Notes under the pieces: generated by a model | Seen by the model: the letters and a program-made list of their open reading frames with translations, nothing else | What the model was told of the DNA's origin: nothing | The model's database searches: none | Position numbers and translations under genes: made by a program | IMG/VR virus record: IMGVR_UViG_3300008954_000001 | Reading direction: 5' to 3' (one strand) | Origin: a virus | Taxonomy: Duplodnaviria; Caudoviricetes | DNA length: 64,000 bases | Shown here: piece after piece, positions 963-54,387 of the stretch | Position numbering within the stretch: the first letter of the stretch is position 1 | Layout: every line of letters starts with the position of its first letter

Positions 963-3900
963 TTAGAGAGAGCTACGAATGTTGAACTTCAGGATAATGT
1001 AAAGCAACGGGAAGATCGGCTGATAGAAAGATTCAACCTCACACGCCGTTGGATCGTTGGGGCTAATGTTCGCCTTGATCCCGGTGTACGCTGAAACAAT
1101 CTGTGCGCTTACCATCTGCTTGTACATCTCGGCCAACCGTCCCTCAACCTGTGAGATAATCTGAGGTAGAAACTTCACGCCAATGAAGCCTTCCAGAGTG
1201 TCACGGGTTTGCTGCTGAACTTCGTCGGCAATCTGAACAACGGAAGGAGTCTTGGTCATAACATTCCCCATGTCCGTAGTGAGGCCCTGCCGCACACGAA
1301 TAAAGGGAGGCTTGTTTTCACAAACCGTAACACCAGCCGAAGCAACCTGATTCATGGTCACGGTATCCAAGTTCCGAGCCACCCCATTCGTACCCACAAA
1401 GGACGTTCCCGTCCATGGAGTAGCGGGGTCACGGTTCGGGCTAACTTGCCGTGCCGCCATCATAGCCGCCAGATACCGACCATCAACCAACTCTTCCTTC
1501 TCGTTTCCGAGTGCGTCAGTAGTCGTGACCGTCAACATATCGGGATACAGACAACGGATTCGAGGGTTACCCGAAACCTTCATGCCGTTTTCATCCTCGC
1601 CCATATCAAGCTGTGCGACCAAATCCGCCGCCTCGGAAGGCTGCGTTCCAGCACTAAAGCCGAGAATACAGGTACGCTCCGCTTGATTACGGATATTGGA
1701 CTGCTCATCCACATGGAGAGAAAGGAAAGTTCCCAACTCGTGTGAATACTCAAGCAAAGGCACGAGGACCGATGGCCGAATACGACCGGGCAACAGACCT
1801 TCAAGTTCCGTGACCGCATCCAAATAGGATGCGATAGAACCGTTTACCTTGCCCTCTTCACGCCGTACCTGCTTCACGCCAACAACGGTAGCACCGTTCA
1901 TAAACATGAGGTAGGAAGCCAGACTGCTCTGATTGGTAGCCCCCACTGATCCGAATGCAGCCTCAATCGAAGCAACCTTCGTAAACAGACGGGGTGAGTA
2001 GTTACGCTTCTCGTACTCATACGAGGCGTAATAGCTCTGTCCAATCGCAGGCTCGTTGCCACCCTTATGGTGAGTCGTGATCGTTGCCGTATCACCTTCT
2101 CCAACGGAACTGGTGTTTGCAACGAACAACTGAACGCCAGGAATCGAGTCAATCGGCACATTGGCATCACAGGTAATCTCATCTGCACAGGTCAACTCAA
2201 AGGTTGAGGTTGCGTTAGATGAGTAGTTACCACCACCAAGCGGAGCCAAAAGCGTGAAGGTAAGACCCGTGACTTCATCACGATAAGTCTGACCAACAAC
2301 ACCATCTTGACCAGTACCGTCGTTGAGGACAGAAGATCCCGAAGAACCTGACCCAACAGGGTTATCAGAAGTGACATGGAAGCCAGTGCGACCCGACTCA
2401 CCATTATCCTGATCCCCATTCGTACCGAGCAAGCCCGTTCCCGAACGGAAAGCGGTGCAATCGCCCACGGCAACACTTGAAGCAAGACCCAAGGTGGGGC
2501 TTTGAATCTGAACATAATCGTCGCCAGAAGCGTCCGTTACGATCATCACCATCGCACCATCTTGATCCAAACCATCGCCAGCCACATCAGCAAACAACGC
2601 CTTCCACGAAGCCGTTGATTCCGTCATCATCGAAGCCGCCAACGCTGCCGCCGAGACTCCTTCACGAACTGAAGACTCATTGTCGGTAAGACGAATCGTG
2701 TTGTTTGCGCTTCCTTCACCGATAGCAACCCGTGAACTCGCACCCTGCGTGGCACTTTCAATCCAGAAAGCTGCGCCTTCTTGGGTCAAAGCACCTACAC
2801 CAGCGGCGACAAGGGCTGCACTAATCTGACCCAAAACCGAAGCGGGTTCGCCAACAGGTCCAAGAGGAGTCGCCGTACCTACATCAGAAGATGTGAACGC
2901 AACCGTTACGGAGGTTCCGTCGATGGTCAAATCAAGCGTGTCGTTTGCGGGGTTAGCCGCCACACCACCATCGAAGAAAGTGAGTTCTGCCTGACCGTCT
3001 GTATCTACACCGCCACCGACAGCCGTTTGGCCTGTACCAAACCCAACATCAGCCTTAACCGCTGCGGGGAGAACAGTAGCCGAGCTTCGAGGCTCTGCAC
3101 TTTCGCCACCTTCCCAACCGAACAGGCTCATTGCGGTTCCCGAAAGAACCTCAAGACCTAAACCAGTGTGTCCACGAGGGTTCACCGAACCAGCGTTTCC
3201 AGGGATAATGCGGTTGCGGAGAATCAAGCGATCATGGGAATCCGCACCAGAGTCGCCGTTTCCACCGTCACCCAACTTCGCAATCGGGCCATGAAGGATT
3301 TGGGTCTGATCCGTATCCGCAAGAGCGGCGGTATCAATACCTGCGACATTTGCAGCGAAATCCGCCTTAGCCGCTACGGAACTCAAGAAGGAGAATCGCC
3401 CGTGCGTGGCATTTACCGCCCTTGCACAAGTGAATACCAACTGACTACTGACATTCGCAGCAACAGTTACCGTTGGATAATCGTCAACATCCGTTGTTCC
3501 AGCCAATACAACGGTAGTAATCCCGCCTTCGATGGCCGCCTGAACAGCCGCCGCCAAGTCACCAACATTCGTGTAAACGCCAGCGGCGATATCAACACTG
3601 ATGGTTTCGGCACCTTCCGCATCGTCATTCCAATGAAGTCGAATGTTGTCAAAAACGCCAGCGGCGATCTCGACTCGATTCCGAACCATAGTTGAAGCGG
3701 TGTACTGAGGAGGAACAGCGTCCGCAGCGGCGTTAAGGGCCGTTACGAAATCTGCGATGCCAGCGTTCGCCGCACCTACCGTGGCCGAAATCGTCTGACC
3801 ATCAACACTCAAAGAAAGAGTGTCATTTGATCCCGCATCAATCGTCCAAGAGGTGTTGTTATCGGGGGCGGCCTCATCATACTGAGCCTTCGCTGATACG

Positions 3901-5882
3901 AGCATCGCAGCAGCGGGGCGGCTTGCGCCGAGCATCGTTCGAGTAGCACCACCATCAACGGTGATAATCATACTGTCCGAGGAACCGTCCACAAAGAAGT
4001 ATGGGCCAGGGTTGCCAAAAGACATCATGGCGGGGGTTTCATCCTTATCCACCAAAGTAACCGTGACAATTTCGCCCACTGGACCCGTAAACAGGTCGGA
4101 ATCGACCGCCTCAAAACGAGCTTGTGGAAGATTGGAGTTTCCAGACTCAAACTGGAGAACCTCAACCAAACCATCGCCCTTATCCGTCAAAGGAGCAGCA
4201 AAAACGGAGTCTCCACCACTATCTGTAATAGAGTAGGTGCCTACTGAAGAAGCCCCTGCCGAAACACAGGTGAGGGTAAAGGTCTCGTCATCAACGCCGT
4301 TGTACCAATGGGTAGCGAACAAGGACATACCTGGCTCAATGGCTTCCGCCAAAGTAACCGTCTTTGTATTAGCATCCACACTGGCAACCGTGACAGCACC
4401 ACGATCCAAGGCATCCTGAACATCATATCCAGCGAAAGCCGTGACCAGTTCGGGGCGGTTTGACCACACATCCCGACGATCATTCGTCATGGCCTTAAAG
4501 GTTGCGGGAGTTAGAGGAAACTCATTCCCCGGTGATCCCACACCATTACCAGAAGTTGGAATACGGCTAAGAGTGAACGCCGTTCGACTCGTCGCCCCAC
4601 CATCCGTAACAGGCTCGCAAAGCTCCATGTGAGTGCGGCAATCCGCCAACTGTGCCGTGATTTGAGTGTCATCAAAAGGCGTGGCGAGTTCCGAAGAGGA
4701 ATCCGCAGCGATAATAGCCGCCGTTCCCCAATGGAGTTTGTCGTCCTGAAGGATGAAGTCACTGCCTGCGAGGTAGTCCATACGACTCGGCTCAAGACCA
4801 CACCGCAACATTCGAGTTACGCCAATGTCGAAAACATAGTCGAAAGTGTCCTGCCAAGAGTTCCAGAAGTAGGTCACCTCTAAAGTTGATCCCGCTGCGG
4901 GAGCAACCGCCAAAGTGATACCACCGTTCTTTCCGTCTACTTCGGAAACCTCAACTTCTGCCCCGTCTACCGTCACTACAACGCCTGTGGTGCTTCCCGT
5001 ATCAAGGGTGCGACCAGCGTTGGTGCCGTCCACAATCGGACGCTGATGGGTAAAGAAGCGGGCATTTCGAGAAGTCTCGTCACCATTGACGATGCCAAGA
5101 GTGTCGTTTGCGAGGCCAGCACCAATCGCAATGCCTTGTTCCGCAGACAAGAGGATAACAGTATCCCCTTCGTTGTTTGTAATGGTGGAAGCCTCCAAGG
5201 AGCCGATTTCTTCAGCATTGATGAAACCGATTACCTGAACGGCTGTCCAAGTACCTTCAGGAAGCTCGAAAGAAGCACTTTCGCCGTCTACCGTCAGTTC
5301 AAGGGTGTCGTTTGTACCTGCTTCAATCTCAAAACCAGCACCTTCGGCACCCGTTCCAGTGATTTCAGCACCGTCACCCGAAACTTGTGCTGACAAGTCA
5401 TCGGTCTGTTGGGTGTCTGTGCGATTGAAGAAGTAGGTGACCATCACCTCATCCTCAAGGGTCGCAGCCACGGCAAGCTCAATAGTGCCGTTGGCACCGT
5501 TGACAGCCAGTACAACGGAAGGTTCTCCATTGATAAACGCTGTCACATCGGCAGGATCGTTAGTGGTTCGGCCATTCCCCTGACCGTCAACAATGGGGAA
5601 ATTACGGACCATAACAACGGTAGCTTCACCGTTGAAATCTCCGAGATTGCCGTCATCGTCAATCACCGCACGGCCAGCCATGTCATCCAAGGGGATGCGC
5701 TGGTCTACGGATTGGGAAGACCCCCGAACAACCTCAAGGCCGTTTCGGGTCAAAATTTCATTTCCAGGACCAATCAACATAGGAATGTTTGTTGATCCCA
5801 AGACTCCTCCAAGGGCGGATTCGTACTCGGTTTCCGTGTACACGCCGGGAGGGGCATAGGGGTTCTTAAAGTCAAAAGCCAT
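963..5882 (-). CDS. Giant contractile tail sheath protein (1639 aa) with inserted repeated beta-domains
   Basis: N-terminal YAPPGVYTET motif. Sheath-like C-terminus (ERTCILG...IRVRQGLTT...QIADEVQQQTRDTLEGFIG...EVESFYQPIFPLLYIILKFNI). SD AAGGAG upstream. Confidence 0.88.
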   Translation of the reverse strand: MAFDFKNPYAPPGVYTETEYESALGGVLGSTNIPMLIGPGNEILTRNGLEVVRGSSQSVDQRIPLDDMAGRAVIDDDGNLGDFNGEATVVMVRNFPIVDGQGNGRTTNDPADVTAFINGEPSVVLAVNGANGTIELAVAATLEDEVMVTYFFNRTDTQQTDDLSAQVSGDGAEITGTGAEGAGFEIEAGTNDTLELTVDGESASFELPEGTWTAVQVIGFINAEEIGSLEASTITNNEGDTVILLSAEQGIAIGAGLANDTLGIVNGDETSRNARFFTHQRPIVDGTNAGRTLDTGSTTGVVVTVDGAEVEVSEVDGKNGGITLAVAPAAGSTLEVTYFWNSWQDTFDYVFDIGVTRMLRCGLEPSRMDYLAGSDFILQDDKLHWGTAAIIAADSSSELATPFDDTQITAQLADCRTHMELCEPVTDGGATSRTAFTLSRIPTSGNGVGSPGNEFPLTPATFKAMTNDRRDVWSNRPELVTAFAGYDVQDALDRGAVTVASVDANTKTVTLAEAIEPGMSLFATHWYNGVDDETFTLTCVSAGASSVGTYSITDSGGDSVFAAPLTDKGDGLVEVLQFESGNSNLPQARFEAVDSDLFTGPVGEIVTVTLVDKDETPAMMSFGNPGPYFFVDGSSDSMIITVDGGATRTMLGASRPAAAMLVSAKAQYDEAAPDNNTSWTIDAGSNDTLSLSVDGQTISATVGAANAGIADFVTALNAAADAVPPQYTASTMVRNRVEIAAGVFDNIRLHWNDDAEGAETISVDIAAGVYTNVGDLAAAVQAAIEGGITTVVLAGTTDVDDYPTVTVAANVSSQLVFTCARAVNATHGRFSFLSSVAAKADFAANVAGIDTAALADTDQTQILHGPIAKLGDGGNGDSGADSHDRLILRNRIIPGNAGSVNPRGHTGLGLEVLSGTAMSLFGWEGGESAEPRSSATVLPAAVKADVGFGTGQTAVGGGVDTDGQAELTFFDGGVAANPANDTLDLTIDGTSVTVAFTSSDVGTATPLGPVGEPASVLGQISAALVAAGVGALTQEGAAFWIESATQGASSRVAIGEGSANNTIRLTDNESSVREGVSAAALAASMMTESTASWKALFADVAGDGLDQDGAMVMIVTDASGDDYVQIQSPTLGLASSVAVGDCTAFRSGTGLLGTNGDQDNGESGRTGFHVTSDNPVGSGSSGSSVLNDGTGQDGVVGQTYRDEVTGLTFTLLAPLGGGNYSSNATSTFELTCADEITCDANVPIDSIPGVQLFVANTSSVGEGDTATITTHHKGGNEPAIGQSYYASYEYEKRNYSPRLFTKVASIEAAFGSVGATNQSSLASYLMFMNGATVVGVKQVRREEGKVNGSIASYLDAVTELEGLLPGRIRPSVLVPLLEYSHELGTFLSLHVDEQSNIRNQAERTCILGFSAGTQPSEAADLVAQLDMGEDENGMKVSGNPRIRCLYPDMLTVTTTDALGNEKEELVDGRYLAAMMAARQVSPNRDPATPWTGTSFVGTNGVARNLDTVTMNQVASAGVTVCENKPPFIRVRQGLTTDMGNVMTKTPSVVQIADEVQQQTRDTLEGFIGVKFLPQIISQVEGRLAEMYKQMVSAQIVSAYTGIKANISPNDPTACEVESFYQPIFPLLYIILKFNIRSSL

Positions 5883-6041: not shown

Positions 6042-6500
6042 CTATTGACGCTCTTTAGCTTTCAGCTTCTTCTTGTGTCTATCAATCATTCCCATAGCCT
6101 CGGCATTGAGATTTCGGGCGGTTTCTGCGGCCAACCGTTCGTCTTTATTCAGAATTCGGTAATCGCCAGTGTCCGTCCTACTAAGATCGTGTCCAGAAGT
6201 GCCTGGATTGTCTCGAATGACCTCACGCTTTCGCTCATGTCGTTTTGAAATTTGTTCGTAGCTGCCCTTGGCATGGTCGCCAATGACTCGATCTACATTT
6301 GCGTCATAGGAAGATACGCCCGTGTTCTGTGGGCGGATCGTGCCATCCCCATTCGGAATGTAGGTGGAGGTCATCGTTTCAGGGGGGAGCCTAAGAGCTT
6401 CGGCATCGCAACCCAGACAGGGGTAGGGGTCGGTCCCCATAGCCGCTGTACGGTGAGCATCGAAGCGAAGGCCACAAGCCTGACACTGATAATTATACAA
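6042..6500 (-). CDS. FmdB-like zinc-ribbon protein
   Basis: Y-x-Y-x-C-xx-CG...CxxC (YNYQCQACG...CLGCD). Paralogue of 27454..27846. Start may be ATT at 6506. Confidence 0.75.
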   Translation of the reverse strand: MYNYQCQACGLRFDAHRTAAMGTDPYPCLGCDAEALRLPPETMTSTYIPNGDGTIRPQNTGVSSYDANVDRVIGDHAKGSYEQISKRHERKREVIRDNPGTSGHDLSRTDTGDYRILNKDERLAAETARNLNAEAMGMIDRHKKKLKAKERQ

Positions 6501-6556: not shown

Positions 6557-7741
6557 CTATTTGATAAGTTCGTAAGTCCCGCTCCGACCGGAAAAGAAGG
6601 GATCAAGACTCCGCTCGATCCCCAAACTTCGGTTGGCGAGGCTCTCTTCAGTTGCATTAGCGGGGTCTGCCTCCGCCGCTTTCATATCTTCACTGCTGAT
6701 CGCTGAAACAGACCTCATCCACGGCCCCAAAGGAACATGAATAGACCACTCGGTTTCCAAGGAAATGTTGAAGTTCCCGTTGAAGAAGTAGTCGTCGCCC
6801 GTTTCGTCGTAGATTTCTTCCACCTCTCCACCGAGACTCATATCCATGATCTCAATGCCTTCTGTGGAAAGTCGTGGGCGAAGCACACCAAAAATGAATG
6901 TGCAGGTACGATCAATAATCTCTCTCTGAGCGTGAACATCTCTGGAAATCACATCGAATTCCATATTCAGCGTCCAACGACCGCCGTACTCTTGGTATGC
7001 AGGCTCACGCCGATTCGACACAACAACCGCTGCTCGATCCCCCGCCTCCACCTCACGCCCAAACGCCAAGACCACACCAGGAATCGCCGTATTGTCTGCC
7101 CGCATACTCCTAAAAGGAATCGGGCCAAGGCTTGGTACGGCATATCGGTAATCCGCTGAAAGGCTCATCCCTGCTTTCAAGGGCTGAACTAAAGTAATGC
7201 CAGCGGTTTCGGGGTCATAAGTGAAGTTACGCAGCCGAATCCCGCTCGGAACCTCATATAAAGATAAGGTTCCATCCAAGGGCTTCCGCTGAAGAGTCGC
7301 TTCACTGGGACTCACCATAGTTACGGCTTCATTCCGAACCTCTAAAAGACGATCTACATAGAATTCGCCCTCACTGGTGTTCTGATTGTATGCCGTAATC
7401 TCAATGTAATAGACCCCTGCGGGGGAGGGGAAAGAACCTCCGTTGGATTGGATGGCCAGCCCATCCTCCCGAATCCACTCAAGAAAGGTGCCTTGATAAC
7501 TATCTACTTTCGTCAGATAGCAATAACTGTGAACAGTTCCCATGTAGTTATCAGCGGCCATCTTGACGATAGAGCCACCCGACGACTTTACAATGATCCC
7601 ATGTTGAGGGCGTTCGGCAAACGAATACTTACCTTGGATATTATCAACAAGGTCGTCCCTGTACCTCGGATGATAAGACCAGAAGCGACGAAGTTCCTGA
7701 ATGAATCTTCGAGTTAAAGCATGAGTGAGAACGTAGTACAC
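6557..7741 (-). CDS. Putative tail completion/terminator (neck) protein
   Basis: 394 aa, between neck genes and sheath. C-terminal EFDVISRDVHAQREIIDRTCTFIF resembles tail-terminator folds. Function inferred. Confidence 0.55.
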   Translation of the reverse strand: MYYVLTHALTRRFIQELRRFWSYHPRYRDDLVDNIQGKYSFAERPQHGIIVKSSGGSIVKMAADNYMGTVHSYCYLTKVDSYQGTFLEWIREDGLAIQSNGGSFPSPAGVYYIEITAYNQNTSEGEFYVDRLLEVRNEAVTMVSPSEATLQRKPLDGTLSLYEVPSGIRLRNFTYDPETAGITLVQPLKAGMSLSADYRYAVPSLGPIPFRSMRADNTAIPGVVLAFGREVEAGDRAAVVVSNRREPAYQEYGGRWTLNMEFDVISRDVHAQREIIDRTCTFIFGVLRPRLSTEGIEIMDMSLGGEVEEIYDETGDDYFFNGNFNISLETEWSIHVPLGPWMRSVSAISSEDMKAAEADPANATEESLANRSLGIERSLDPFFSGRSGTYELIK

Positions 7742-7754
7742 GACAACTCCAAGG

Positions 7755-8060
7755 TTACTCCTCTTTCAGAGTACCCGTCAGAGTGATTGTACTGCCCTCT
7801 TTGGTCAGAGAAATCGTCGAGTAGTAGCCGAAAAACTTGCGACCCCCTTGGCCGTAATAAACGAGCTTTCCTCGCCCGTGCTCAACGGTTTCCCCATCCT
7901 CTTCTGGGATCGTAACTTGAATCAAAGGCGGCCCCATCGCTGGAATACCTGCCTTTGAGTCATTGAAAGCGTCCCCACTTCCAATTGTCGGGGCATCGGG
8001 ATCTGGTGGGATGATGCCATCCAAGACATCCAGAAAATCTTTACTACTACTCATCATCAT
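7755..8060 (-). CDS. Hypothetical protein
   Basis: 101-aa ORF tightly packed in the operon, overlapping the actin gene stop. Confidence 0.65.
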   Translation of the reverse strand: MMMSSSKDFLDVLDGIIPPDPDAPTIGSGDAFNDSKAGIPAMGPPLIQVTIPEEDGETVEHGRGKLVYYGQGGRKFFGYYSTISLTKEGSTITLTGTLKEE

Positions 8061-9129
8061 ACTCCTGCATGGCCTGAACCAACATTCCGTAAGCCACAGC
8101 GTTTAGCGGTTCGTTTGCGTGTCGAATTTCCGATACTTCAATGGGGAACTTTCGACGCTTCTTGTTAAAAACAGCCTGAAAGAACTCCATGAAGCCCCCT
8201 GCTAAAGAGGTGCCTCCTGAAACCACAATCGGAATCGGACGGGGCAAAGAAAACTGCCCCTCAATCTGCTTAAAGCGGAGGGCGATTTGATCTAAAGCAT
8301 ATTCAATCAAGTTGCGGTAATAGAAAACAATCGCCTCTTGATCTCGCCCCTCAGGACTGTTCAAATCGATCCCCTGCTCCTTAATCGAGCAGATACGGGC
8401 TTGTGTGGACCCAATGCTTCGAGCGGCCCCACCATCAATCCAATCCCCCCCACGGGCGACCGAAAAGCTCAAACCTTCAATAGTGTTCACAGCCAAGGCA
8501 ATATTGGTCATTCCTGAACCGAAACTGATTCCGATCCCCGAAAAACCTTCCTTAGCAGTCTCGGCATAGATAATAGCCATCGCTTCATTCGAGGCATAAG
8601 GCTCATAGCCACATTCCGTCACAATGCGCTCAAAAACCCCTCGGTGATAAATGATGTCTTTATCTGGCTGATCGATGGGGGCGGCGGGAACCGAAAAGTA
8701 ACAGGCTTCATTTTCTACCCGTGGCTCGCCCAAAACATTCTTTACGAGCAACCCCAAAACATCGAGAGCGTCCGTCTCACCCGAAGAAATCAGGCCCGCT
8801 TGTAGTGGTCGCCGTGCTTCTCGGCCAAAGATATTGGCAGTTTCCAATGCGGGATCACCGATAATGATCAATTCGTCAGGTCGCTCAACGTAGCTCACAC
8901 CCGACAATTTCAACATTTTCTTGGAGTCTGGCGGAAGGTCGAGGAAAGCATCTCGAACTCGACGGGACTCAATCTCACCCGACCCGCTTCTACGGGCCGA
9001 AACGATATTCATTGTCCCGATGTCCAACCCTACGCCCTTAGGGAGCACCTTGGCGGGCTTCTTCGAGGCCGCCTTAGGCTTTGCTTGAGGCTTTTCTTGG
9101 GGCGTTTCTGGGGTTTCTGCGTCAGACAT
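8047..9129 (-). CDS. Actin-like ATPase (MreB/ParM/FtsA superfamily)
   Basis: Phosphate-1 GLDIGTMN, connect-1 SNEAMA, phosphate-2 ISFGSGMTN, adenosine VVSGGTSLAGG, connect-2 PLNAVAYG. SD GGAG upstream. Confidence 0.88.
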   Translation of the reverse strand: MSDAETPETPQEKPQAKPKAASKKPAKVLPKGVGLDIGTMNIVSARRSGSGEIESRRVRDAFLDLPPDSKKMLKLSGVSYVERPDELIIIGDPALETANIFGREARRPLQAGLISSGETDALDVLGLLVKNVLGEPRVENEACYFSVPAAPIDQPDKDIIYHRGVFERIVTECGYEPYASNEAMAIIYAETAKEGFSGIGISFGSGMTNIALAVNTIEGLSFSVARGGDWIDGGAARSIGSTQARICSIKEQGIDLNSPEGRDQEAIVFYYRNLIEYALDQIALRFKQIEGQFSLPRPIPIVVSGGTSLAGGFMEFFQAVFNKKRRKFPIEVSEIRHANEPLNAVAYGMLVQAMQEYDDE

Positions 9130-9140
9130 TTTAGGACTCC

Positions 9141-9776
9141 TTATTTTTTCTTCTTAGCTTTCCTGAGTTGCCTTAATGCCTCAGTAGCCGCATCCACAGA
9201 GGAACCCTTTGAAGATGTGCTGGAGGTATCGATATCAGCCTTCAACTCACCTGACACGATACCCTCAGGAATAAACATAGGCGTATCATCGACTAAAGCC
9301 GATGGGTGCTGCCCACCTTGGACGGCACCAGCGTTTTGAACAATGGGTAAATTACCCAACATTTCTTTCAACATGGATGCAAGAACCTCCGTATCGACTT
9401 GGGCCGCTGGAGGAGCGGGGGCGGGAGCGACTACGGGCGCTGGAGCTTTTTGGTTTTCAAGGGTGCTCGAAATCTGAACAAGATGATCCCGGAGAGCACC
9501 AGAAATCATCTCTTTCATACGATCTTCAAAATTTGGTGTCGGAATCTTGTTCTTCGGCTTGCGTTTCTTCGGGGCGTTTCTTCGAGAAGTGTCTCGGATT
9601 CGAGGAGCTTGCTTCGTCTTAAAGGATAAACCTCCGAGCCGAATAGCCCGCTGAACCTCAACTGAGCGCATAGCGTCCTGTTCGGGGATCTCCAACCGCT
9701 CTCCTCTCGTTAGCACAACCCCAAATTCAGGCAGGGAAATCCTGTCCATGCGACACGTTAAAATCACGGTTTTCAT
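9141..9776 (-). CDS. Hypothetical protein (Pro/Ala-rich linker, basic C-terminus)
   Basis: 211-aa ORF with ATGA overlap to the upstream gene, directly upstream of the actin gene. Confidence 0.75.
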   Translation of the reverse strand: MKTVILTCRMDRISLPEFGVVLTRGERLEIPEQDAMRSVEVQRAIRLGGLSFKTKQAPRIRDTSRRNAPKKRKPKNKIPTPNFEDRMKEMISGALRDHLVQISSTLENQKAPAPVVAPAPAPPAAQVDTEVLASMLKEMLGNLPIVQNAGAVQGGQHPSALVDDTPMFIPEGIVSGELKADIDTSSTSSKGSSVDAATEALRQLRKAKKKK

Positions 9777-10297
9777 TGCTTCTTCCCTAAGGCATGGCCG
9801 ACCATTGTGGTCCCGTATTCGTCCAAGATGGCTTTCTTAGCCCTCTGGATAGCCCTCTGGATGAAGGTGTGTTTAGCGATCCCTGGATGACACCAGATAT
9901 TGTCTGAACAAGGCCCCTTCTTTAGTTTGGCGGGCATGGTTCGGAAGATTAACTCTCCCGATTTCTTATCGATGAGCGGAATAACCTTCCCCGGCGCACC
10001 TACTCGCCAGCCTTTCTTTCCCTCCATGTATGCTTCAGGCTTCATATGAGGCCAAGACGATTGAATCTCAATCGTACTTTTACCTCTCAAAGACCACGAA
10101 AAAGAGTTGAAGAACTTTTCAGAGCGGGGGATCGACTTGGAGCGACCGGCTACCTTCATAGCTTCTTGCTTGATGAACTCGATGCACTTATCCCCCAACT
10201 TCGCCAAAATTGTATTGGAGGGGCTGGTTCGGAACCCACCCTTCTTAGCTAAAGGGCCGCCGTAAATACCTTTGACTCGAAACGGTTGCTCTGCCAC
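9773..10297 (-). CDS. Putative HK97 gp10-like neck/tail component
   Basis: Basic 174-aa protein ending in PGIAKHTFIQRAIQRAK, reminiscent of gp10-like proteins. Follows the head-closure gene. Confidence 0.5.
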   Translation of the reverse strand: MAEQPFRVKGIYGGPLAKKGGFRTSPSNTILAKLGDKCIEFIKQEAMKVAGRSKSIPRSEKFFNSFSWSLRGKSTIEIQSSWPHMKPEAYMEGKKGWRVGAPGKVIPLIDKKSGELIFRTMPAKLKKGPCSDNIWCHPGIAKHTFIQRAIQRAKKAILDEYGTTMVGHALGKKQ

Positions 10298-10306
10298 TTA
10301 TCCCCC

Positions 10307-11671
10307 CTACTTCTCAATGTTATCCCACACAGGGGTACGGCCTCGTTTCTCCGTCTCATCGGGGAAATTGCTCTTTTCAGTTTGCATGGGGGTCGTACTA
10401 TCAGTGCCGATAGGAAAGGGGGGAGAATGGTCATGCTGTCCCGCAGCGGGAGCCACAGCACTGTGGCTGTATCGAGTTTCAGGGAAGACCATGGAATCAG
10501 TTCCATCGATGGGAACCTCAAAACGAATGTCCTGTTGGTCAATGATCCCAATCGTAAAGTGCTGCTGTAAAACATTCCCTCGATTAGTGGGGCGACGAAC
10601 GGCCCCTACGCTGTATCTCTCATTTGTTTGCTTAACGATAAAGTCTCGCATCGTAAGCATGGGGCTTGGCCCCATGAAAACCTCGTACTGCATCTCCACT
10701 CGTCGGCCCATCGGGGTTTGGGACACACGACGATCCCCATCTTCGGGGGCGATAATAATGTCGTAAGGGCCTTCGTAGCCCCCGATATAGCCCGTGCCAA
10801 AACACAAACGGCATCGTTGGGAGGCTTGCTTGTTGTATTCAAGATCCTGCTCGTCCATCCCACAAGAACAATGCGTTCCCGTAGTCTTTCGGACAAAAGC
10901 CTTTACTCGCTCGCCACCTTGCTGAAGAATCCACTGATTGCGGCGAACAGCCTCTTTCCAAATGTAATCCAACTCCTCGATGGCCGTTGGCGTAACAGGA
11001 TGGCAGTTCTCTAAAGCCGTCTCAACCAACCCATTTTCGGTGACGGCAACGGTGGTTAGACGGTAAAAAACCTTACGGTCAAGGGCGACCCCTGGCGTAA
11101 GGTTCTTGTTTCGGTAGTACGAAACCGTGACCGATGTGTTTTCGTCTATGGTGGTTGGGTCTGCGTACTTCTCTCGTCCAACATCATAAGTCGCATGGTT
11201 GGTCAGGATTACCTCACCCGTGCGACCAAACACTTGCTGAACCTCAACAGGCTCGCCAGCAATCTCAACAACAAGATCCGAGGGCGAATTCGCAAATACC
11301 CCACGGCCATCTTTTTTGACCATAGGGTGCTTACTGCGAAAGGACCACCTACGACTGTTCGAGGCATCGCCCTTATTGACCCAAGAATTGTCGAAATCGA
11401 CAACCTCTTGCCGCACCAAAACATTAACTGTTCTGTCCCGATAGAAAGCCCCTCCAACGGGGACTTCGTTGACCCGACGATAGGGGCCACGGTCTGATGC
11501 GTCAGACCGATACACATTTACCCCAAGGATAGTCCAAGGAGTATTAGCTGACAGTAGGGCGGGGTTGTCCCATCGAAGATCATAAACCCCTACTTTATAG
11601 GGGCTAAAAGCCATCCCGTTTTGAGGCGGAGAAGGCTTATCTCCCGTCGATGTCTCCCAGCCAGCAGTCAA
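10307..11671 (-). CDS. Putative head-closure/neck protein with FN3-like N-terminus and Zn-finger insert
   Basis: LRWDNP...VNVYRS...FYRLTTV (FN3-like strands), then CSC...CRLCFGTGYIGGY and a beta-barrel-like C-terminus. Neck-module context. Confidence 0.55.
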   Translation of the reverse strand: MTAGWETSTGDKPSPPQNGMAFSPYKVGVYDLRWDNPALLSANTPWTILGVNVYRSDASDRGPYRRVNEVPVGGAFYRDRTVNVLVRQEVVDFDNSWVNKGDASNSRRWSFRSKHPMVKKDGRGVFANSPSDLVVEIAGEPVEVQQVFGRTGEVILTNHATYDVGREKYADPTTIDENTSVTVSYYRNKNLTPGVALDRKVFYRLTTVAVTENGLVETALENCHPVTPTAIEELDYIWKEAVRRNQWILQQGGERVKAFVRKTTGTHCSCGMDEQDLEYNKQASQRCRLCFGTGYIGGYEGPYDIIIAPEDGDRRVSQTPMGRRVEMQYEVFMGPSPMLTMRDFIVKQTNERYSVGAVRRPTNRGNVLQQHFTIGIIDQQDIRFEVPIDGTDSMVFPETRYSHSAVAPAAGQHDHSPPFPIGTDSTTPMQTEKSNFPDETEKRGRTPVWDNIEK

Positions 11672-11683
11672 AGCAACCTCCTA

Positions 11684-12136
11684 CTACCCTTCTGAGGGTG
11701 CTTCGGCTGCCTCTCCCATGGCTCCAGGGGTGCTTTGAACAACTACAGTGCCATCTGGATTCACAGACCAGCCTGACCCTTCAGCGATCCCCAAGGATTC
11801 CCCGATTTCTCGGAGCTTGTTTTGCGAGGCGGATTCCAACTGACCATAAGAAGCGATGATCCGAGCCTTGCGAATTTCAATATTCCCAAGCTCCTTCACA
11901 CAATCCTCGCCCGCCATGCGGAAACGGTTCAAAACCGCCATATCCGCTTCGGGTACGGTCAGGGTTTCAGTTGTCGCTGACACGGCTTCTTCCGTTGCTT
12001 TAGCGACATCTTCAGGTGCAGATACCGAAGCGGTTTCAGTACCATCAGCTTCGGCGGTTACGGTTTCCTCAACTGCTTCGGTGGCTGTCTCAACTGCACC
12101 ATCATCAGTATTCTTGGACTTTTTCTTTCCAAACAT
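11684..12136 (-). CDS. Hypothetical protein (acidic N-terminus, coiled coil)
   Basis: 150-aa ORF with SD GGAG, first gene of the neck/actin unit. Confidence 0.75.
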   Translation of the reverse strand: MFGKKKSKNTDDGAVETATEAVEETVTAEADGTETASVSAPEDVAKATEEAVSATTETLTVPEADMAVLNRFRMAGEDCVKELGNIEIRKARIIASYGQLESASQNKLREIGESLGIAEGSGWSVNPDGTVVVQSTPGAMGEAAEAPSEG

Positions 12137-31743: not shown

Positions 31744-33090
31744 TCAGCGGGTTTGCCGAAGGAGTCTAATCTCCGCTTTGAGGGTTTCGATCTGATCTTG
31801 TTGTTCTTGGACAGCTTTGACCAAAGGGGCAAGCAATTCGGTGTAAATCATGCCGATTCCTTCTTCCGATTCAGATACCCCGGCAAAAGCCTTCCCTTTC
31901 AGTGCGGTCTTTACTTGATCTCCAAGAAATCCGTAGTGGCGATCATCATCTGCTCCCGCTCGGAATTTATAGGATACGGGCCTTACTGACATGATGAAGT
32001 CTAACCCAAGGTCACAATCATTGATAAGCCGCTTCTTCTGAGAGTCAGAAACAGTTGCTACACCATTGATCGAATAAATACCGTCCCACGGGCGAATGGG
32101 TGTGCCGAGATAGTGCTTGTACTTTCCTTGGCCGCCAACATCGGGTATCTCCCACCCGTTGTTCTTCATAATGTCCAGAACCACATCAAGGAAGTCTTTT
32201 TGGGAAGGGGGCTTTCCAGAAAAGATCCTCGTCCACCTATCCCAATTTGAAGCATCCCATCTTCGGTCCTTGGATGCCGTTACCGTAGAAACCAATCGGG
32301 AATCTTTACCTTGAAACTGCAATAGGAACTGTTGAGGGTGCGAGAGGCCGCCTTTTTGTATGCTTGCGGATAGATCCTCAATCGTCTCATACACCTTCTC
32401 ATATAGATACAGTATGTGCTTTTGGTGCTTTTCGACCTGCGATGCGATTTCATGTTGAAGCTCTTTGAGCTTCGTTTTGTGCTCAACGATCTGGTGCTGT
32501 AGCACCGCCATCTTCTTACTCAGAGTGGCTTTTATATCCTCGGACTCCTTTTGGAGCAGTTGTATCTGCTTATGCTTCTTGTCCATAGAAGCCTGATAAA
32601 AACTCATCGCCTCTGCGATCTGTTGATCAAGGTCTTTTATGCTGTTTTGAAGGGACTCAATTAGGGTTGTGTCGCCCGCCACATGAGCGGCTTTCAATTG
32701 TTGCTCTAAAGAAGCCTTCGTATTGTCAAAGGCCATCATCTGGAGTTTATGGCTCTCTTGAAGGGCCTTTATGCTCATATGAAGAGCATAGATTTGTTGA
32801 TCTTTTTCCTGAAGCGACTTGCTTAATTCCTCTTGGACGGACGCTAATTCCGCTTGGGCGGCTTTAATGGCCGCCTGAGTTTCCGCCGATGCTTTCGCCC
32901 CTTCTTCTTTTACCTTTTCCAAGGTGCGTTCGATATCCGCAATCTCTGTGTTGAGTTTGAGAAGGATCTCATGCTCATCCCCTCGACCTCCCAACTGTAA
33001 GAAAGTGGTGGCAACTAACTTCGCTTCGGTCATAGCCTGATCGAAGTCTATGTCGGCATCCTTGTACTTGTTCACATAATTGGTAGCCAT
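31744..33090 (-). CDS. Coiled-coil fibre protein with C-terminal intramolecular chaperone (Peptidase S74)
   Basis: LGT..RPW..IY..NG..TV-SDSQKK...GLDFIMSVRPVSYKF...HYGFLGDQV...YTELLAPLVKAVQE, the S74 autocleaving chaperone signature. Confidence 0.85.
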   Translation of the reverse strand: MATNYVNKYKDADIDFDQAMTEAKLVATTFLQLGGRGDEHEILLKLNTEIADIERTLEKVKEEGAKASAETQAAIKAAQAELASVQEELSKSLQEKDQQIYALHMSIKALQESHKLQMMAFDNTKASLEQQLKAAHVAGDTTLIESLQNSIKDLDQQIAEAMSFYQASMDKKHKQIQLLQKESEDIKATLSKKMAVLQHQIVEHKTKLKELQHEIASQVEKHQKHILYLYEKVYETIEDLSASIQKGGLSHPQQFLLQFQGKDSRLVSTVTASKDRRWDASNWDRWTRIFSGKPPSQKDFLDVVLDIMKNNGWEIPDVGGQGKYKHYLGTPIRPWDGIYSINGVATVSDSQKKRLINDCDLGLDFIMSVRPVSYKFRAGADDDRHYGFLGDQVKTALKGKAFAGVSESEEGIGMIYTELLAPLVKAVQEQQDQIETLKAEIRLLRQTR

Positions 33091-45630: not shown

Positions 45631-47019
45631 TTAATCCGTGTGCGAGATGAGCTTGCCCAGACGGACTAACGCCTTGGCTTCTGTCAAAGAGGGCTTACGT
45701 CCAAGTGCTCTCGTACATGCACTTAGATACCCAGTTAAATTGTCGTACTTCTTTGTTGAACCGAGTTTTAAGGCGGCTCGATAGATTTCCACAGGAAACA
45801 TGATTTTGTGATGGTTGTTATAGGTGGCTACCCGGTTGATAAGATCAGCAGGTTTCGTGGAAGTGTCTAAAATCGCTTGTAGTCCAATAAGATACGTCTG
45901 TTTATCTGCGCCACGGGCTTCCCGCTGAAGCGTATCGTTCGGGGCCATTGAAGAGTCGCCGTCCCCTTCGGGGGCACCCTCCAAGTCCTTTTCAATACGC
46001 TGACGAGCTTTGGAAAGAATCTTTCCAACAATCTTATCTTCCAGTTCTTGGAGTGGAGAAGCATCTTCCTCCCCACCCACCTCATCTGGAACATCAGGAT
46101 CATCCCAACCAGCGAAAACGAGTGAGGAGGCTGCGGCTTTCGCCAAGCCCCCATCGGCCCATTCTTTCGGGAGGGAAGATAATACTTCTTGAGCTTGCTT
46201 CTTCGCAGAATCGCTCATCTCCAACGGGGAGACAATATTTCGCATAACCGCACCCGCAAATGCGGGAGTTGCTACCCAACTGGCTTCGATGAAGGTCACT
46301 CCCCCTGTGGGATCAAGGGTTTGATGTCCACAGAGTTCAGCAATCCGATGTTGGCGGCCTTGATCATCAAAAAAGGTATTCCCCTTTTCGTATTTGATAT
46401 GACCACACATTTCGGTTTCATCGGCGGCAACATTTCCGCATTTTGTACATACGGTAAAGTCCACCGAACAGCCCATCGACATAGCTGCCATTCTGCCATT
46501 CTCAATCGCCTTTACTAAATCAGTGTGTTTGCGATTGGTGGCAATCAGAATGTCGATGTAAACGCTGTCCCCAATATCACGAGCAACCGCATCAATGATC
46601 CTGCCTTTCGACAGGTTTTCAATCTGAACATGCTCAACGAAGTTATGCGCCCCAATGAAAGTCTTGTAGGACTTCATTAGAACCTCACGGCTCCAAGCAT
46701 CCAGATTATTATTGATGAACTTATCGCAATCAGGAACGATCCTATAATCCGTATAGTTACGGACCACTTGTTGACCATCTTCTTGAGAAGACCCGACCTT
46801 TACTCCGGGGACATCTTCAACATCCACCGAGCAAACAATCGTCGCATGGGTCAAAAGGTGATCTTTGGGATCAAAGCTCGACCCAAGAAGCTCCGCCGCT
46901 CGTGCGGAAACCTTCGTAGCAAGTTCTGTGTCCTGTGCCGCTGTGCGAATCTTCTGCCAACTCTTCGGAGAGAGTTGTGGAGATACTACTTTCGCCTTCG
47001 CATACTTTAGAAAAGCCAT
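45631..47019 (-). CDS. Prohead (capsid maturation) protease with Cys/His insert
   Basis: HNFVEH...GRIIDA...MSMGC (His/Ser dyad-type motifs), CTKCG...CGH insert, FIEASWVATPAFAGA. Canonical position in the head module. Confidence 0.78.
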   Translation of the reverse strand: MAFLKYAKAKVVSPQLSPKSWQKIRTAAQDTELATKVSARAAELLGSSFDPKDHLLTHATIVCSVDVEDVPGVKVGSSQEDGQQVVRNYTDYRIVPDCDKFINNNLDAWSREVLMKSYKTFIGAHNFVEHVQIENLSKGRIIDAVARDIGDSVYIDILIATNRKHTDLVKAIENGRMAAMSMGCSVDFTVCTKCGNVAADETEMCGHIKYEKGNTFFDDQGRQHRIAELCGHQTLDPTGGVTFIEASWVATPAFAGAVMRNIVSPLEMSDSAKKQAQEVLSSLPKEWADGGLAKAAASSLVFAGWDDPDVPDEVGGEEDASPLQELEDKIVGKILSKARQRIEKDLEGAPEGDGDSSMAPNDTLQREARGADKQTYLIGLQAILDTSTKPADLINRVATYNNHHKIMFPVEIYRAALKLGSTKKYDNLTGYLSACTRALGRKPSLTEAKALVRLGKLISHTD

Positions 47020-52069: not shown

Positions 52070-53761
52070 TTAGAAGCGGCTACCGCCATCGTCCTTCTTC
52101 TCGTACTCCAAGCCCATGCTCTCAGCGACCTTCTGAGCCACATCAGAGCTTTCGGCCAAAGCCCGACCAACCTCACTGTACACTGACCGCATAACCTCAT
52201 TGAAAGAGGAGTCGTTCAAAGTGAATAGATCCCGTTGTAGTTTGAGCTTGGTTGTCTCTGGGTCGATATTTAGCAACTCCAAGATAATGTCGATATCGAG
52301 ACTTCCCTTTTGATAAAGGTTGAACAAGGCATCGAAAGTATCTGAGTTGTCCCGCAAGGCCAATCGAGTGAACGAGAGTTTAGGGTAAATCACATTCTCC
52401 AACCCGTCCTCATCCGTCTCAACGAACCCCATGCGAGCACACATCGGCTTGAAAACGTACTCTTCAATGAAATCTTGGAGGAGTTCCCGAAGCAACATAT
52501 AGCGAGTGTTGATCACCTCAAGGTTGATCCTATCCCCCGAATACGAAGACTCACCTGAAAGCAAAGACTCCGTTACCCCAAGGCCCGCATATAGCTGGCG
52601 GTCAGTCAGGTCATACTCAGTGGTCAAATCCAACAGGCGTTGATCCGCCCCCATTTCTTCCCAACGAATCTCGAAGTTGGCGATGATTGAGTAGTCGGGG
52701 TCTTGTAGAGATAGGTCCACCTGATCCCGTAACTCCTCAACATCCTGAATATCCATACCTTCGGCATAAATCACTCGAATGGGGGTCATGTGGCGGCTGG
52801 CGATAGAAGTCTGAGCCTGTCGGAGCTTGTCCCTAAACACCAATGTTCGGATACAGCGTTCGAGGATCGAGTGTCCACGGGCCTCGTATTGGCTCTTTTT
52901 GCGGGACATGTAGTAAACGAACGACCCCGCTTCGGGGTCTGTGTTCAAGGAAATGTTCTGGCCGCCTCGAATTGAATTGACCACATCGGAGGGCATCGAA
53001 TCCACAACACGCTTGGCGTTGGAGTCGCCCATATCCGCTTGGTTGATCAGATCCTTGGTCTTCGAGTCAGGGATAAGCTCAACAATCCTTTCATCCGTAA
53101 AAGGAAACGCTTCCATGTGGACTTGTTCGGGAGGCAATATACGAATGGCAGTCCAACCATTGTAGTTCTCCTTTAGCCAAGTAACGGCTCGATCATCTGC
53201 GTCTGGTCGCTCGTGCCATTGGACATCCACCTCTTGAGTCTCGTCATTCAAAACACGGACTTCTTCTTGTCGAATATCTTGGGGCATGTCCGGGGAGGTG
53301 TCTTCAACAAAGATAAACACCTCTCCAATCAAATGATAGTCATGGACAATCTCAATCAGCCGATGCAGCAGCCCCGTGCTCTTTGACCATTTCTGGCAAA
53401 AGGCCAACGCTTTCTCCGCTAATTGGTGATCTTCCGCTTTCGGGATATTCAACCGAAGTTTGCTCAGGGGAAGCTCTGTGTGTAGGTCAATCGCTTGACC
53501 TACAAAAGGGTCGGCCCGATAAAAGAAGCGATAGTAGTTACGCTGTTCATCAAGACTTTGAGGAAGCTCCAAGAAGTCTGTCGAAAGCTCAGGGCTATAA
53601 AAGTTGCCCCCCGCCCCAGTCATGCTTCCACCCACTTGTGGGAAAGAAGCCATCTTGATCCCGCCCGTTGCGATTTTTCTCGGCTTCCCTGTCGTGACTT
53701 TCGCACGATTTGGAACCTTGGCTACCTCTTTGCCTTCTTGTTCCTCGATCTTTCTACTCAT
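52070..53761 (-). CDS. Portal protein
   Basis: 563 aa downstream of TerL. Portal-like pattern (FFYRADPFVGQAIDLHTELP...DYHLIGEVFI...GHSILERCIR...YAGLGVTESLL...YMLLRELLQDFIEEYVFKP). Confidence 0.85.
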   Translation of the reverse strand: MSRKIEEQEGKEVAKVPNRAKVTTGKPRKIATGGIKMASFPQVGGSMTGAGGNFYSPELSTDFLELPQSLDEQRNYYRFFYRADPFVGQAIDLHTELPLSKLRLNIPKAEDHQLAEKALAFCQKWSKSTGLLHRLIEIVHDYHLIGEVFIFVEDTSPDMPQDIRQEEVRVLNDETQEVDVQWHERPDADDRAVTWLKENYNGWTAIRILPPEQVHMEAFPFTDERIVELIPDSKTKDLINQADMGDSNAKRVVDSMPSDVVNSIRGGQNISLNTDPEAGSFVYYMSRKKSQYEARGHSILERCIRTLVFRDKLRQAQTSIASRHMTPIRVIYAEGMDIQDVEELRDQVDLSLQDPDYSIIANFEIRWEEMGADQRLLDLTTEYDLTDRQLYAGLGVTESLLSGESSYSGDRINLEVINTRYMLLRELLQDFIEEYVFKPMCARMGFVETDEDGLENVIYPKLSFTRLALRDNSDTFDALFNLYQKGSLDIDIILELLNIDPETTKLKLQRDLFTLNDSSFNEVMRSVYSEVGRALAESSDVAQKVAESMGLEYEKKDDGGSRF

Positions 53762-54063: not shown

Positions 54064-54387
54064 CTACCCACGACCTTTTCGAGGTTCATCCGACTTAAAC
54101 CCTGACCGTGTAATATGCCCTGTCTTGTAAGCCGTTTTCACAACTTTCTTCAAGAGAGTAATATGGGGAACACTACCTGAAAAGAGCCTTCTCCAAGAAC
54201 CACCAGCCCGCTTAAACACCCGTATGATCTCATCATACTCGGCCCCAATATGCACGGCATCAGGACCATACTTATCGATGAAATCTTTGATAAGACGGTA
54301 ATCAGCCCGTACAGGATCAGTGGGGTCTTTGTTGGGCATCTTATCTCCTCTTCTTCCCAGGCACTTGCCGAGACTCGTGTGAGCCAC
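54064..54387 (-). CDS. Hypothetical protein
   Basis: Operon-packed ORF. Probable start MPNKD at about 54339 after GGAG. Confidence 0.65.
   Translation of the reverse strand: MAHTSLGKCLGRRGDKMPNKDPTDPVRADYRLIKDFIDKYGPDAVHIGAEYDEIIRVFKRAGGSWRRLFSGSVPHITLLKKVVKTAYKTGHITRSGFKSDEPRKGRG

Follow-up and report, generated by a model that had tools for sequence, protein, structure and literature searches.

An actin of the volactin family in the neck/tail operon of very large phages, and a neighbouring candidate adaptor

Introduction

A very large phage encodes an actin of the volactin family within its neck/tail operon, directly downstream of a small two-module protein whose C-terminal module co-varies with the actin. 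Both genes lie in a stretch of 64,000 nucleotides (the window, to which all positions refer) from the IMG/VR virus record IMGVR_UViG_3300008954_000001 (Duplodnaviria; Caudoviricetes). Positions 8047-9776 contain two minus-strand open reading frames (ORFs), 8047-9129 for the 360-amino-acid (aa) actin and 9141-9776 for the 211-aa candidate adaptor, termed g211. Phage cytoskeletons are known mainly from the PhuZ spindle and a few DNA-handling actins, and we propose that in the phages described here the actin probably forms an optional filament system during late infection.

Results

The phage protein is a volactin-family actin

The Pfam Volactin profile (PF25216) matched the actin (8047..9129, minus strand, the 8047 end including the stop codon) with an E value of 1.6e-72 and 245.2 bits (cut-off 35), spanning profile positions 3-321 of 321. 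Among 14 control genomes, this profile rose above its cut-off in Haloferax volcanii alone. It was also the sole Pfam match of the phage protein at E up to 0.01, and the MreB profile PF06723 was not reported. An AlphaFold2 (AF2) model built from 86 relatives (predicted local distance difference test, pLDDT, 94.2; predicted template-modelling score, pTM, 0.89) adopted the four-subdomain actin fold with all five actin/ASKHA motifs, preceded by a Lys/Pro-rich N-terminal tail (residues 1-31; 9037..9129, minus strand) that is predicted to be disordered (pLDDT 55-81, no secondary structure) and that varies in length, or is absent, among relatives. The best Foldseek matches of the model, at E of about 1e-14, were MreB (1jcf), the MamK filament (5ljv) and the BeeR filament (8r2n); further down followed eukaryotic actin and FtsA, with EutJ at rank 36 and no Hsp70 within the top 50. 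The top structural matches are all filament-forming actins, and the phage protein belongs to a filament-forming lineage. Searching the PDB with a sequence profile pointed the same way (MamK 3e-14, BeeR 4e-10, MreB 5e-7, FtsA 2e-6, with EutJ also among the matches), and the single sequence retrieved a chance match to ALIX alone (E 0.01). The original prediction of an actin-like ATPase with all five motifs was thus confirmed together with its coordinates.

We then inspected the nucleotide site in an alignment of 69 phage-clade members, 55 cellular members and a divergent copy from phage LR756511, using MreB and MamK-like genes of magnetotactic genomes as outgroups. The phosphate-1 motif VGLDIGTMNIV (D36, G38, T39; 9001..9033, minus strand, as are all motifs) was invariant in the family and the outgroups. 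In the connect-1 motif SNEAMAIIYAE (8560..8592), the putative catalytic E182 was present in 125 of 125 members and in every MreB and MamK-like outgroup sequence, and it aligned with the SEP motif of MamK. The adenosine motif IPIVVSGGTSLAGGF (8191..8235) was invariant at G305 and G306 and the connect-2 motif EPLNAVAYGMLVQ (8074..8112) at G348, so that D36, E182, G204, G206, G305, G306 and G348 are universal positions of the alignment. The phosphate-2 motif GIGISFGSGMTNIA (8497..8538) followed the pattern S-x-G-x-G-M-x-N, with S202 and N209 in 125/125 phage and cellular members; all ten MreB and MamK-like outgroup sequences carried Asp at the S202 position and Asp or Glu at the N209 position. 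The Ser that had been noted in place of the usual phosphate-2 Asp is therefore real but not special to this gene: N209 likewise stands in place of the terminal Asp/Glu, and by comparison of these 125 sequences the Ser/Asn pair is a signature of the volactin family and not a peculiarity of the window's gene. As far as residues can tell, the nucleotide site is intact, with family-specific chemistry.

The same loop is an intein hot-spot. Phage actin relatives (P0121, P0123, P0125, P0126, P0128, P0149, P0186, P0207 and P0267; window equivalent 8434-8538) carry inteins with HNH or LAGLIDADG homing endonucleases. Their four insertion points follow S202, G204, M207/T208 and R226, and all but the last fall inside the six-residue phosphate-2 loop. 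Such insertions are typical of strongly conserved, functionally important sites.

The phage actins form an old lineage of their own

A search of 5.8 billion proteins yielded 2,234 actin relatives. The best 120 shared 69-93% identity with the query, many of them on contigs of 100-413 kb, and an identical protein was present on a 323.5-kb contig. An exhaustive search gave 1,100 clusters (50% identity) with an E-value limit of 1e-3 and 340 with a limit of 1e-30. In IMG/VR, a relative is encoded on at least 501 viral contigs, the largest of 619 kb; deposited phage records contributed two matches only, both from unannotated huge phages, LR745208 (485 kb, 71% identity) and LR756511 (595 kb, 32%). 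Among species-representative genomes, homologues sharing 30-44% identity were numerous in Magnetococcales and also occurred in Planctomycetota, Omnitrophota, Desulfobacteraceae/Syntrophales and a handful of archaeal bins, and the cellular relatives were enriched in magnetotactic lineages.

In a maximum-likelihood tree rooted on MreB (outgroup, 100% support), the branch between the volactin family and the MamK-like genes from magnetotactic genomes measured 3.19 substitutions per site and had 99% support. All syntenic viral actins formed one clade (99% support) on a long stem, apart from every cellular member, and their sister was a Magnetococcales-dominated clade (97% support). Genuine cellular volactin loci were chromosomal and had no phage neighbours. 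Given the well-supported syntenic clade and the cellular loci free of phage genes, phylogeny indicates that the actin gene is an old phage lineage and not a recent pick-up from a host. Recent capture of a host MreB or FtsA, with which the gene did not cluster, is ruled out by the phage-only clade on its long stem and by clade-wide synteny. Other identities were likewise rejected: MreB, because PF25216 is the sole Pfam match and MreB falls in the outgroup; MamK, on account of the long, well-supported branch and the Ser/Asn signature; and a PhuZ/TubZ tubulin, by the actin fold.

Three contigs binned with bacteria, L085 (Legionellales metagenome-assembled genome, MAG), L086 (uncultured bacterium MAG) and L087 (Methylobacter MAG), fell within the phage clade and had the complete huge-phage neck/tail synteny; they look like phage DNA mis-binned in bacterial genomes, or possibly hint at hosts. 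The volactin of LR756511.1 (L002 / L148; 548798-549799) has the same Ser/Asn signature and, in the tree, falls outside the clade of syntenic phage actins on a branch that is long and poorly placed. Its gene context differs (weak GT9, MptE-like and tail-lysin-like matches), and its sequence and surroundings suggest that it may be a separate acquisition by another huge-phage lineage. In full-text literature searches volactin turned up in haloarchaeal contexts only, and we found no paper that ties the family to phages; the huge-phage paper mentions tubulin/PhuZ and not actin.

The actin gene is embedded in a conserved neck/tail operon

Synteny and sequence identity were compared over about 80 viral loci, with identities taken relative to the window. 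The genes follow one another on one strand in the order g150, g454, g174, (g211), actin, a variable stretch, g394, a Zn-ribbon gene and the giant gene g1639, and the position of the actin in the neck/tail-completion operon holds across this set. With a median identity of 67.3% (range 62.6-85.7), the actin is the best-conserved gene of the block, followed by g454 (50.5%), g394 (47.8%), g1639 (40.5%), the Zn-ribbon gene (36.3%), g150 (32.2%), g174 (29.9%) and g211 (26.7%). These identities indicate that the actin is under strong purifying selection and more constrained than any neighbouring structural gene.

The block is tightly packed. Successive gaps between g454, g174, g211, the actin, the small ORF g101 and g394 measure 10, -4, 11, -14 and 13 nt, no intergenic region between g454 and g394 exceeds 60 nt, and an AAGGAG ribosome-binding site precedes the actin ATG. 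No convincing internal promoter was seen in the block (one promoter-like site against 6.2 expected), nor a convincing internal terminator (13 terminator-like sites against 7.7 expected, sd 3.1, every one within coding sequence), in line with the earlier statement that no terminator separates the actin gene from its neighbours. Around the actin and g211 there was no iteron or centromere-like repeat array, only short chance repeats within coding sequence. Exactly one volactin gene was present in each of five huge-phage records with this family (381-619 kb; completeness of 90% or more in two). Tubulin (PF00091) had no match in eight related huge-phage records, including the five with actin; the same search was positive in 13 of 14 cellular genomes.

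The C-terminal module of g211 co-varies with the actin

At almost every locus, an ORF of about 190-270 aa ends at the actin start, and these ORFs are homologous by hidden Markov model (HMM) in 55 of 61 dereplicated loci. In the window this is g211 (9141..9776, minus strand). Its N-terminal domain (residues 1-56; 9609..9776, minus strand) is predicted with high confidence (pLDDT 95-98) to have the topology bbbb-aa-b, and the middle of the protein is a Pro-rich, basic, disordered linker with one or two helices, as seen in alignment A3 and the AF2 model. The C-terminal module (residues 160-211; 9144..9299, minus strand), which we propose as an actin-docking tail, comprises the peptide PMFIPEGIV, an acidic/Ser-rich spacer and the helix VDAATEALRQLRKAKKKK. 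Across relatives it takes the form of an invariant P-x-F-I-P peptide (the FIP peptide) followed by a DDAxxALRAxRKKK helix at the C-terminus; F168, I169, P170 and L201 vary little or not at all, against about 20% identity in the rest of the protein. There are Lys/Arg-rich segments and a polybasic end, and no hydrophobic segment. Model and alignment therefore fit the earlier description of this ORF as a globular head, flexible linker and basic tail. Weak fold leads for the N-terminal domain were YqbF of a Bacillus subtilis prophage (Z 4.2, root-mean-square deviation 2.0 Å over 50 residues) and small myophage proteins. In a wider structure search the best Z was 4.4, and the best BFVD match, to a 51-aa Xanthomonas phage protein, had an E of 4e-3, so that no fold could be assigned.

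Relatives that lack the actin were recovered through g454. Whereas the single g454 sequence found nothing, a search with its alignment (A4) returned 283 viral contigs, and among the 76 g454 loci with at least 3.5 kb downstream, the actin was present in 63 and absent from 13. Seven of the nine actin-less loci with an otherwise intact operon retain a g211 homologue (E 1e-17 to 1e-23) of 121-181 aa. These shorter proteins cover HMM positions 3 to about 83-116 of 210 and end in a basic stretch, and they lack the FIP peptide and the helix. As the polybasic end is retained, they are not simple 3' truncations. Overall, the C-terminal module was found at 70 of 71 actin-positive loci versus 0 of 9 actin-negative loci, and five of five independent contrasts went in the same direction.

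Prediction of a complex between the actin and g211 gave an interaction score (ipSAE) of 0.50, with a partner pLDDT of at least 54 and a contact agreement of at least 49%; the best of three controls scored 0.00, as did all of them. Of 80 solved complexes, 58 passed the mark applied here, as did 2 of 110 mismatched pairs; the passing scores of 0.60 or less comprised seven of the 80 solved complexes and both mismatched pairs. The prediction thus lends weak support to binding. The idea that 9141..9776 encodes an adaptor gained from the co-variation of its C-terminal module with the actin, and little from the complex prediction, which returned no interface.

FIP-like tails also occur beside cellular homologues

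At Magnetococcales loci (L094-L113, L135; for example L100:3473-5595), two kinds of protein encoded upstream of the actin homologue have a FIP-like tail at the C-terminus: an acidic run, T/P-F-I-P-S/T, about 25 residues and a helix such as SL-x-D-x-AKKL. One tail-bearer is a FimV_N-domain (FimV_N-like) protein of about 550-750 aa; the other has about 130-150 aa with two hydrophobic N-terminal segments and is a putative two-transmembrane (2-TM) protein. The cellular tail pattern matched 32 of 2,172 ORFs of those loci, and 31 of the 32 lay upstream of the actin gene. Our first version of this pattern matched none of 67 phage tails. Run against the cellular loci, the phage g211 HMM found upstream tail-bearing ORFs only, and weakly (2e-3 to 5e-3).

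Further observations concern individual relatives. Locus L089 (5417-7035), on a 54.5-kb contig binned as Thermoplasmatales that may be viral, has a g211-like ORF ahead of its volactin homologue, with both the N-terminal segment and a DIFIPP...LLSEIQKEKK tail. The genes around it, most of them unknown, are densely packed in a single direction and include a NUDIX hydrolase and glycosyltransferases. The volactin homologue in G004 has a MamK-like gene some 11 kb away. A magnetosome-cluster location of the Magnetococcales homologue is unsupported, as the immediate neighbours at L100 are not magnetosome genes. The cellular family possibly includes Mad28 of deep-branching magnetotactic bacteria; published accounts of Mad28 mention neither phages nor volactin. 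P0165 (1160 aa) combines a volactin domain, fused N-terminally, with a Wzz/GNVR/ParA-like module of polysaccharide co-polymerase / BY-kinase type, a domain arrangement that suggests a cellular link of the actin family to envelope polysaccharide machinery. Relatives P0124, P0133, P0137, P0140, P0142 and P0148 have N-terminal extensions of about 200-580 aa with no Pfam match.

Other genes of the block and the window

The window, which represents the structural part of a very large phage genome, contains genes for the large terminase (54341-56161) and the portal (52070-53761), for a prohead protease (45631-47019) and for a tail fibre (31744-33090). All genes of the block are on the minus strand. 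The first conserved one, g150 (11684..12136), occurs at 43 of 80 loci. It is followed by g454 (10307..11671; 61/80 loci), our synteny anchor, a conserved virion-module protein with Cys motifs that in the feature atlas matches viral hypothetical clusters only. Upstream of the actin at 69 of 80 viral loci lies g174 (9773..10297), an HK97-gp10-like / YomN-like tail-completion protein with atlas feature scores of 0.95-0.96 to clusters with PF27376 and PF04883. Downstream, g394 (6557..7741; 61/80 loci) is a conserved structural protein (phrog_2729, virion structural protein, E 0.008), and the SP10_terminator cluster (0.79) is a lead only. Of the operon neighbours named in the original prediction, the gp10-like gene and the tight packing are accordingly upheld, and the tail terminator is reduced to a weak lead. 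No PHROGs family was matched by the actin, g211, g174, g454 or g101.

The Zn-ribbon protein gZn152 (152 aa; 6042..6500; 60/80 loci), between g394 and the sheath, matches PF09723 at E 1e-4, under the curated cut-off, and PF09723 is also found on the L003 homologue. The giant tail sheath g1639 (1639 aa; 963..5882; 58/80 loci) matches phrog_2839 tail sheath at 7.9e-23 through its C-terminal 490 aa; the whole protein had no match in Pfam or the PDB, and its remainder is a long Thr/Ala/Gly/Asp-rich insertion region, about 40% conserved among relatives. The small ORF g101 (7755..8060), which overlaps the actin stop by 14 nt, was rejected as a second actin partner, since homologues were found in L007 and L085 only and it is lineage-specific. 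The module was split at loci L031, L032, L041, L050-L052, L054, L065, L070, L073-L077, L079, L080 and L082-L084. On a 265,895-bp IMG/VR contig (L223 and L021), g454 lies about 90 kb from the g174-actin block, so the neck module can be rearranged.

Discussion

We propose that phage volactin forms a filament that is made late with the neck/tail genes and tethered by g211 to the virion-assembly machinery, as an accessory system; taken as a whole, this account falls a little short of an even chance in our judgement. The actin would bind and hydrolyse ATP and polymerise into filaments in the infected cell, as homology to volactin, MamK and MreB suggests. Going by operon position alone, it would be made together with the late neck/tail-completion genes. 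The N-terminal domain of g211 would itself be a component of the neck/tail module, and the C-terminal 'PxFIP ... DDAxxALRAxRKKK' tail would dock on the actin, such that g211 couples the actin to the virion-assembly machinery. We infer both this physical contact and the nature of the cargo: in infections by very large phages without a tubulin spindle, the filament would position, gather or move large assembly intermediates (heads, tails, neck complexes). It would raise virion production and not be required for it.

A number of findings weigh against this proposal. Nine of the 13 actin-less loci retain the rest of the operon and lack precisely the actin; one of them is on a 536-kb contig, rated 100% complete, on which neither a volactin gene nor a tubulin was found anywhere. 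The g454 tree requires seven changes of actin state, at least five of them on well-supported branches. Since it was gained or lost at least five times and is missing from a complete 536-kb relative, the actin cannot be essential for virion building; it is an accessory gene. Linkage to tail genes is not absolute: in some relatives, the split loci listed above, the actin still comes after g454 and g174, but the next 8 kb contain none of g394, the Zn-ribbon gene and the sheath, and the LR756511 actin lies in a different context. Replacement of both acidic phosphate-2 residues could slow or change hydrolysis. For g211, a Foldseek search of the N-terminal domain against the PDB gave nothing at E up to 1e-3. 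The sign test on the five contrasts yields p = 0.0625, the minimum attainable with five pairs. In addition, gene adjacency confounds the co-variation: the coding sequence of the tail directly precedes the actin gene, and a single deletion or recombined cassette could add or remove both. A tail-only HMM reached a best E of 0.024 against ORFs of the cellular loci, and the putative homology between phage and cellular tails draws on inspection of a short motif and on weak full-length HMM matches.

Some of these points bear directly on whether g211 is an adaptor at all. It could be an ordinary neck/tail protein whose 3' end travels with the actin as a recombination cassette, the actin acting alone or with other partners. 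A C-terminal module that abuts the actin start could be co-lost or co-gained in one DNA event, a pass at the complex score of 0.50 is more likely to be wrong than right, the tail-only HMM hardly detects the cellular tails, and LR756511 has an actin with no recognisable FIP-tail neighbour. We nevertheless consider this unlikely, if still a serious contender: actin-less g211 homologues keep their polybasic end instead of being simply truncated, the four (nearly) invariant tail residues stand out in such a divergent protein, tails of the FIP type sit on unrelated N-terminal architectures with nearly all pattern matches upstream of an actin, and every control in the complex prediction stayed at zero. 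A different partnership, in which the actin and g211 act like ParM/ParR or AlpC/AlpA to move or anchor phage DNA or to segregate a plasmid-like prophage, with g211 binding DNA by its basic segments, has precedent on its side. The phage and prophage actins studied by experiment all act on DNA, among them AlpC of CGP3 (PMC4446434). Systems of the ParM/Alp7A type are further examples. The Lys/Arg-rich segments and polybasic end of g211 and the Lys-rich N-tail of the actin would suit such a function, and one IMG/VR relative is classed as a provirus. What makes genome positioning distinctly unlikely in our view is the lack of a centromere-like array near the pair, and of intergenic room for one, along with an N-terminal domain whose predicted topology differs from the ribbon-helix-helix of ParR and from which no DNA-binding fold was recovered. 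Moreover, the pair is fixed in the neck/tail operon, away from replication genes, the N-terminal domain stays in that module where the actin is missing, and one relative is 100% complete with direct terminal repeats, as for a virulent packaging genome.

The cellular members of the family raise the thought that membrane- or envelope-anchored filaments reshape, enlarge or stiffen the infected cell, or that they organise the site of lysis. Polybasic tails are capable of binding acidic lipids, and the cellular FIP-tail neighbours look like membrane or envelope proteins (putative 2-TM, FimV_N-like), as does HVO_2016 with its four TM segments. Moreover, H. volcanii volactin takes part in shape transitions with filament tips on the membrane (PMC10869688). 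Phage g211, however, has no hydrophobic segment, and its N-terminal domain remains in the structural module even where the actin is gone. Takeover genes are usually early and not placed amid tail-completion and terminator genes, and we regard host-cell remodelling as quite improbable. Least probable of all would be a non-polymerising ASKHA ATPase, an Hsp70- or EutJ-like chaperone for giant sheath or neck proteins. The gene does sit among structural genes, the two acidic phosphate-2 residues are replaced, and EutJ is among both the structural and the profile matches; yet filament actins match best, with EutJ far behind and Hsp70 missing from the leading matches, and the protein has no substrate-binding domain. 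The one characterised volactin polymerises in vivo, and conservation far above that of its neighbours fits a protein with many self-contacts.

Comparison with known systems places the proposed assembly filament among several partial analogues. MamK is a cytoplasmic filament that positions large cargo via adaptor proteins, and by profile it is the closest solved structure (PDB 5jyg, 5ljv); the 5ljv filament has TM scores of 0.65/0.71 with the phage actin. It differs in belonging to a separate family of about 20% identity and in having Asp/Asp at phosphate-2 instead of Ser/Asn. Volactin of H. volcanii (VolA, HVO_2015) shares with the phage actin PF25216, the actin fold and a neighbouring gene as candidate anchor or adaptor. 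It forms dynamic filaments in vivo, acts in cell-shape transitions (rod-to-disk), touches the membrane with its filament tips and appears essential (PMC10869688), whereas the phage actin is accessory. The 4-TM CdpA-like HVO_2016 adjoins it, and volactin was enriched in CdpA pull-downs (log2 fold change 2.5, p = 0.06; PMC12126565); the phage protein, by contrast, lies in a neck/tail operon, forms a phage-only clade and has a small soluble partner. The volactin-like actins of Magnetococcales and other cells are of the same family, with the same Ser/Asn signature and similar FIP-type tails on upstream neighbours, but are chromosomal, with putative 2-TM and FimV_N-like partners. PhuZ, whose tubulin spindle positions the replication compartment and delivers capsids in nucleus-forming jumbo phages (PMC8314001, PMC9067925), is also a phage-encoded cytoskeletal polymer of very large phages and serves as our working analogy for a trafficking role, although it has a tubulin fold and is not embedded in a neck/tail operon. 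AlpC/AlpA of the Corynebacterium prophage CGP3 combines a prophage actin with an adjacent adaptor gene and acts on DNA (PMC4446434). Like ParM/ParR, it uses a DNA-binding adaptor and a centromere-like site; the phage pair lacks repeats and has a structural-operon context, and where ParR-type adaptors are ribbon-helix-helix proteins, the g211 N-terminal domain is predicted as bbbb-aa-b, with no significant fold match in the PDB or BFVD.

These findings place a true actin among the virion neck/tail genes of uncultured huge phages that form a very large clade with global distribution (at least 501 viral contigs). The volactin family, previously a haloarchaeal cell-shape protein, now extends to phages, magnetotactic bacteria, Planctomycetota and archaea. 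Relatives with and without the actin occur naturally and, together with the short co-varying tail, open the hypothesis to direct testing. A bolder version, which we hold to be somewhat unlikely, is that many huge phages without a tubulin spindle run their own actin cytoskeleton through a universal docking tail (acidic run, FIP, amphipathic helix) on a neck/tail protein, and that during late infection it actively gathers or transports heads, tails or neck complexes. In cells, such a docking tail would then be the general tether of the volactin family, on membrane and FimV-like anchors in Magnetococcales and perhaps on the CdpA-like neighbour in haloarchaea. If that were true, it would constitute a new actin-adaptor system across phages, bacteria and archaea. 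And if the filaments do organise virion assembly, they would represent a second, independent answer to the problem of moving very large particles through the crowded bacterial cytoplasm.

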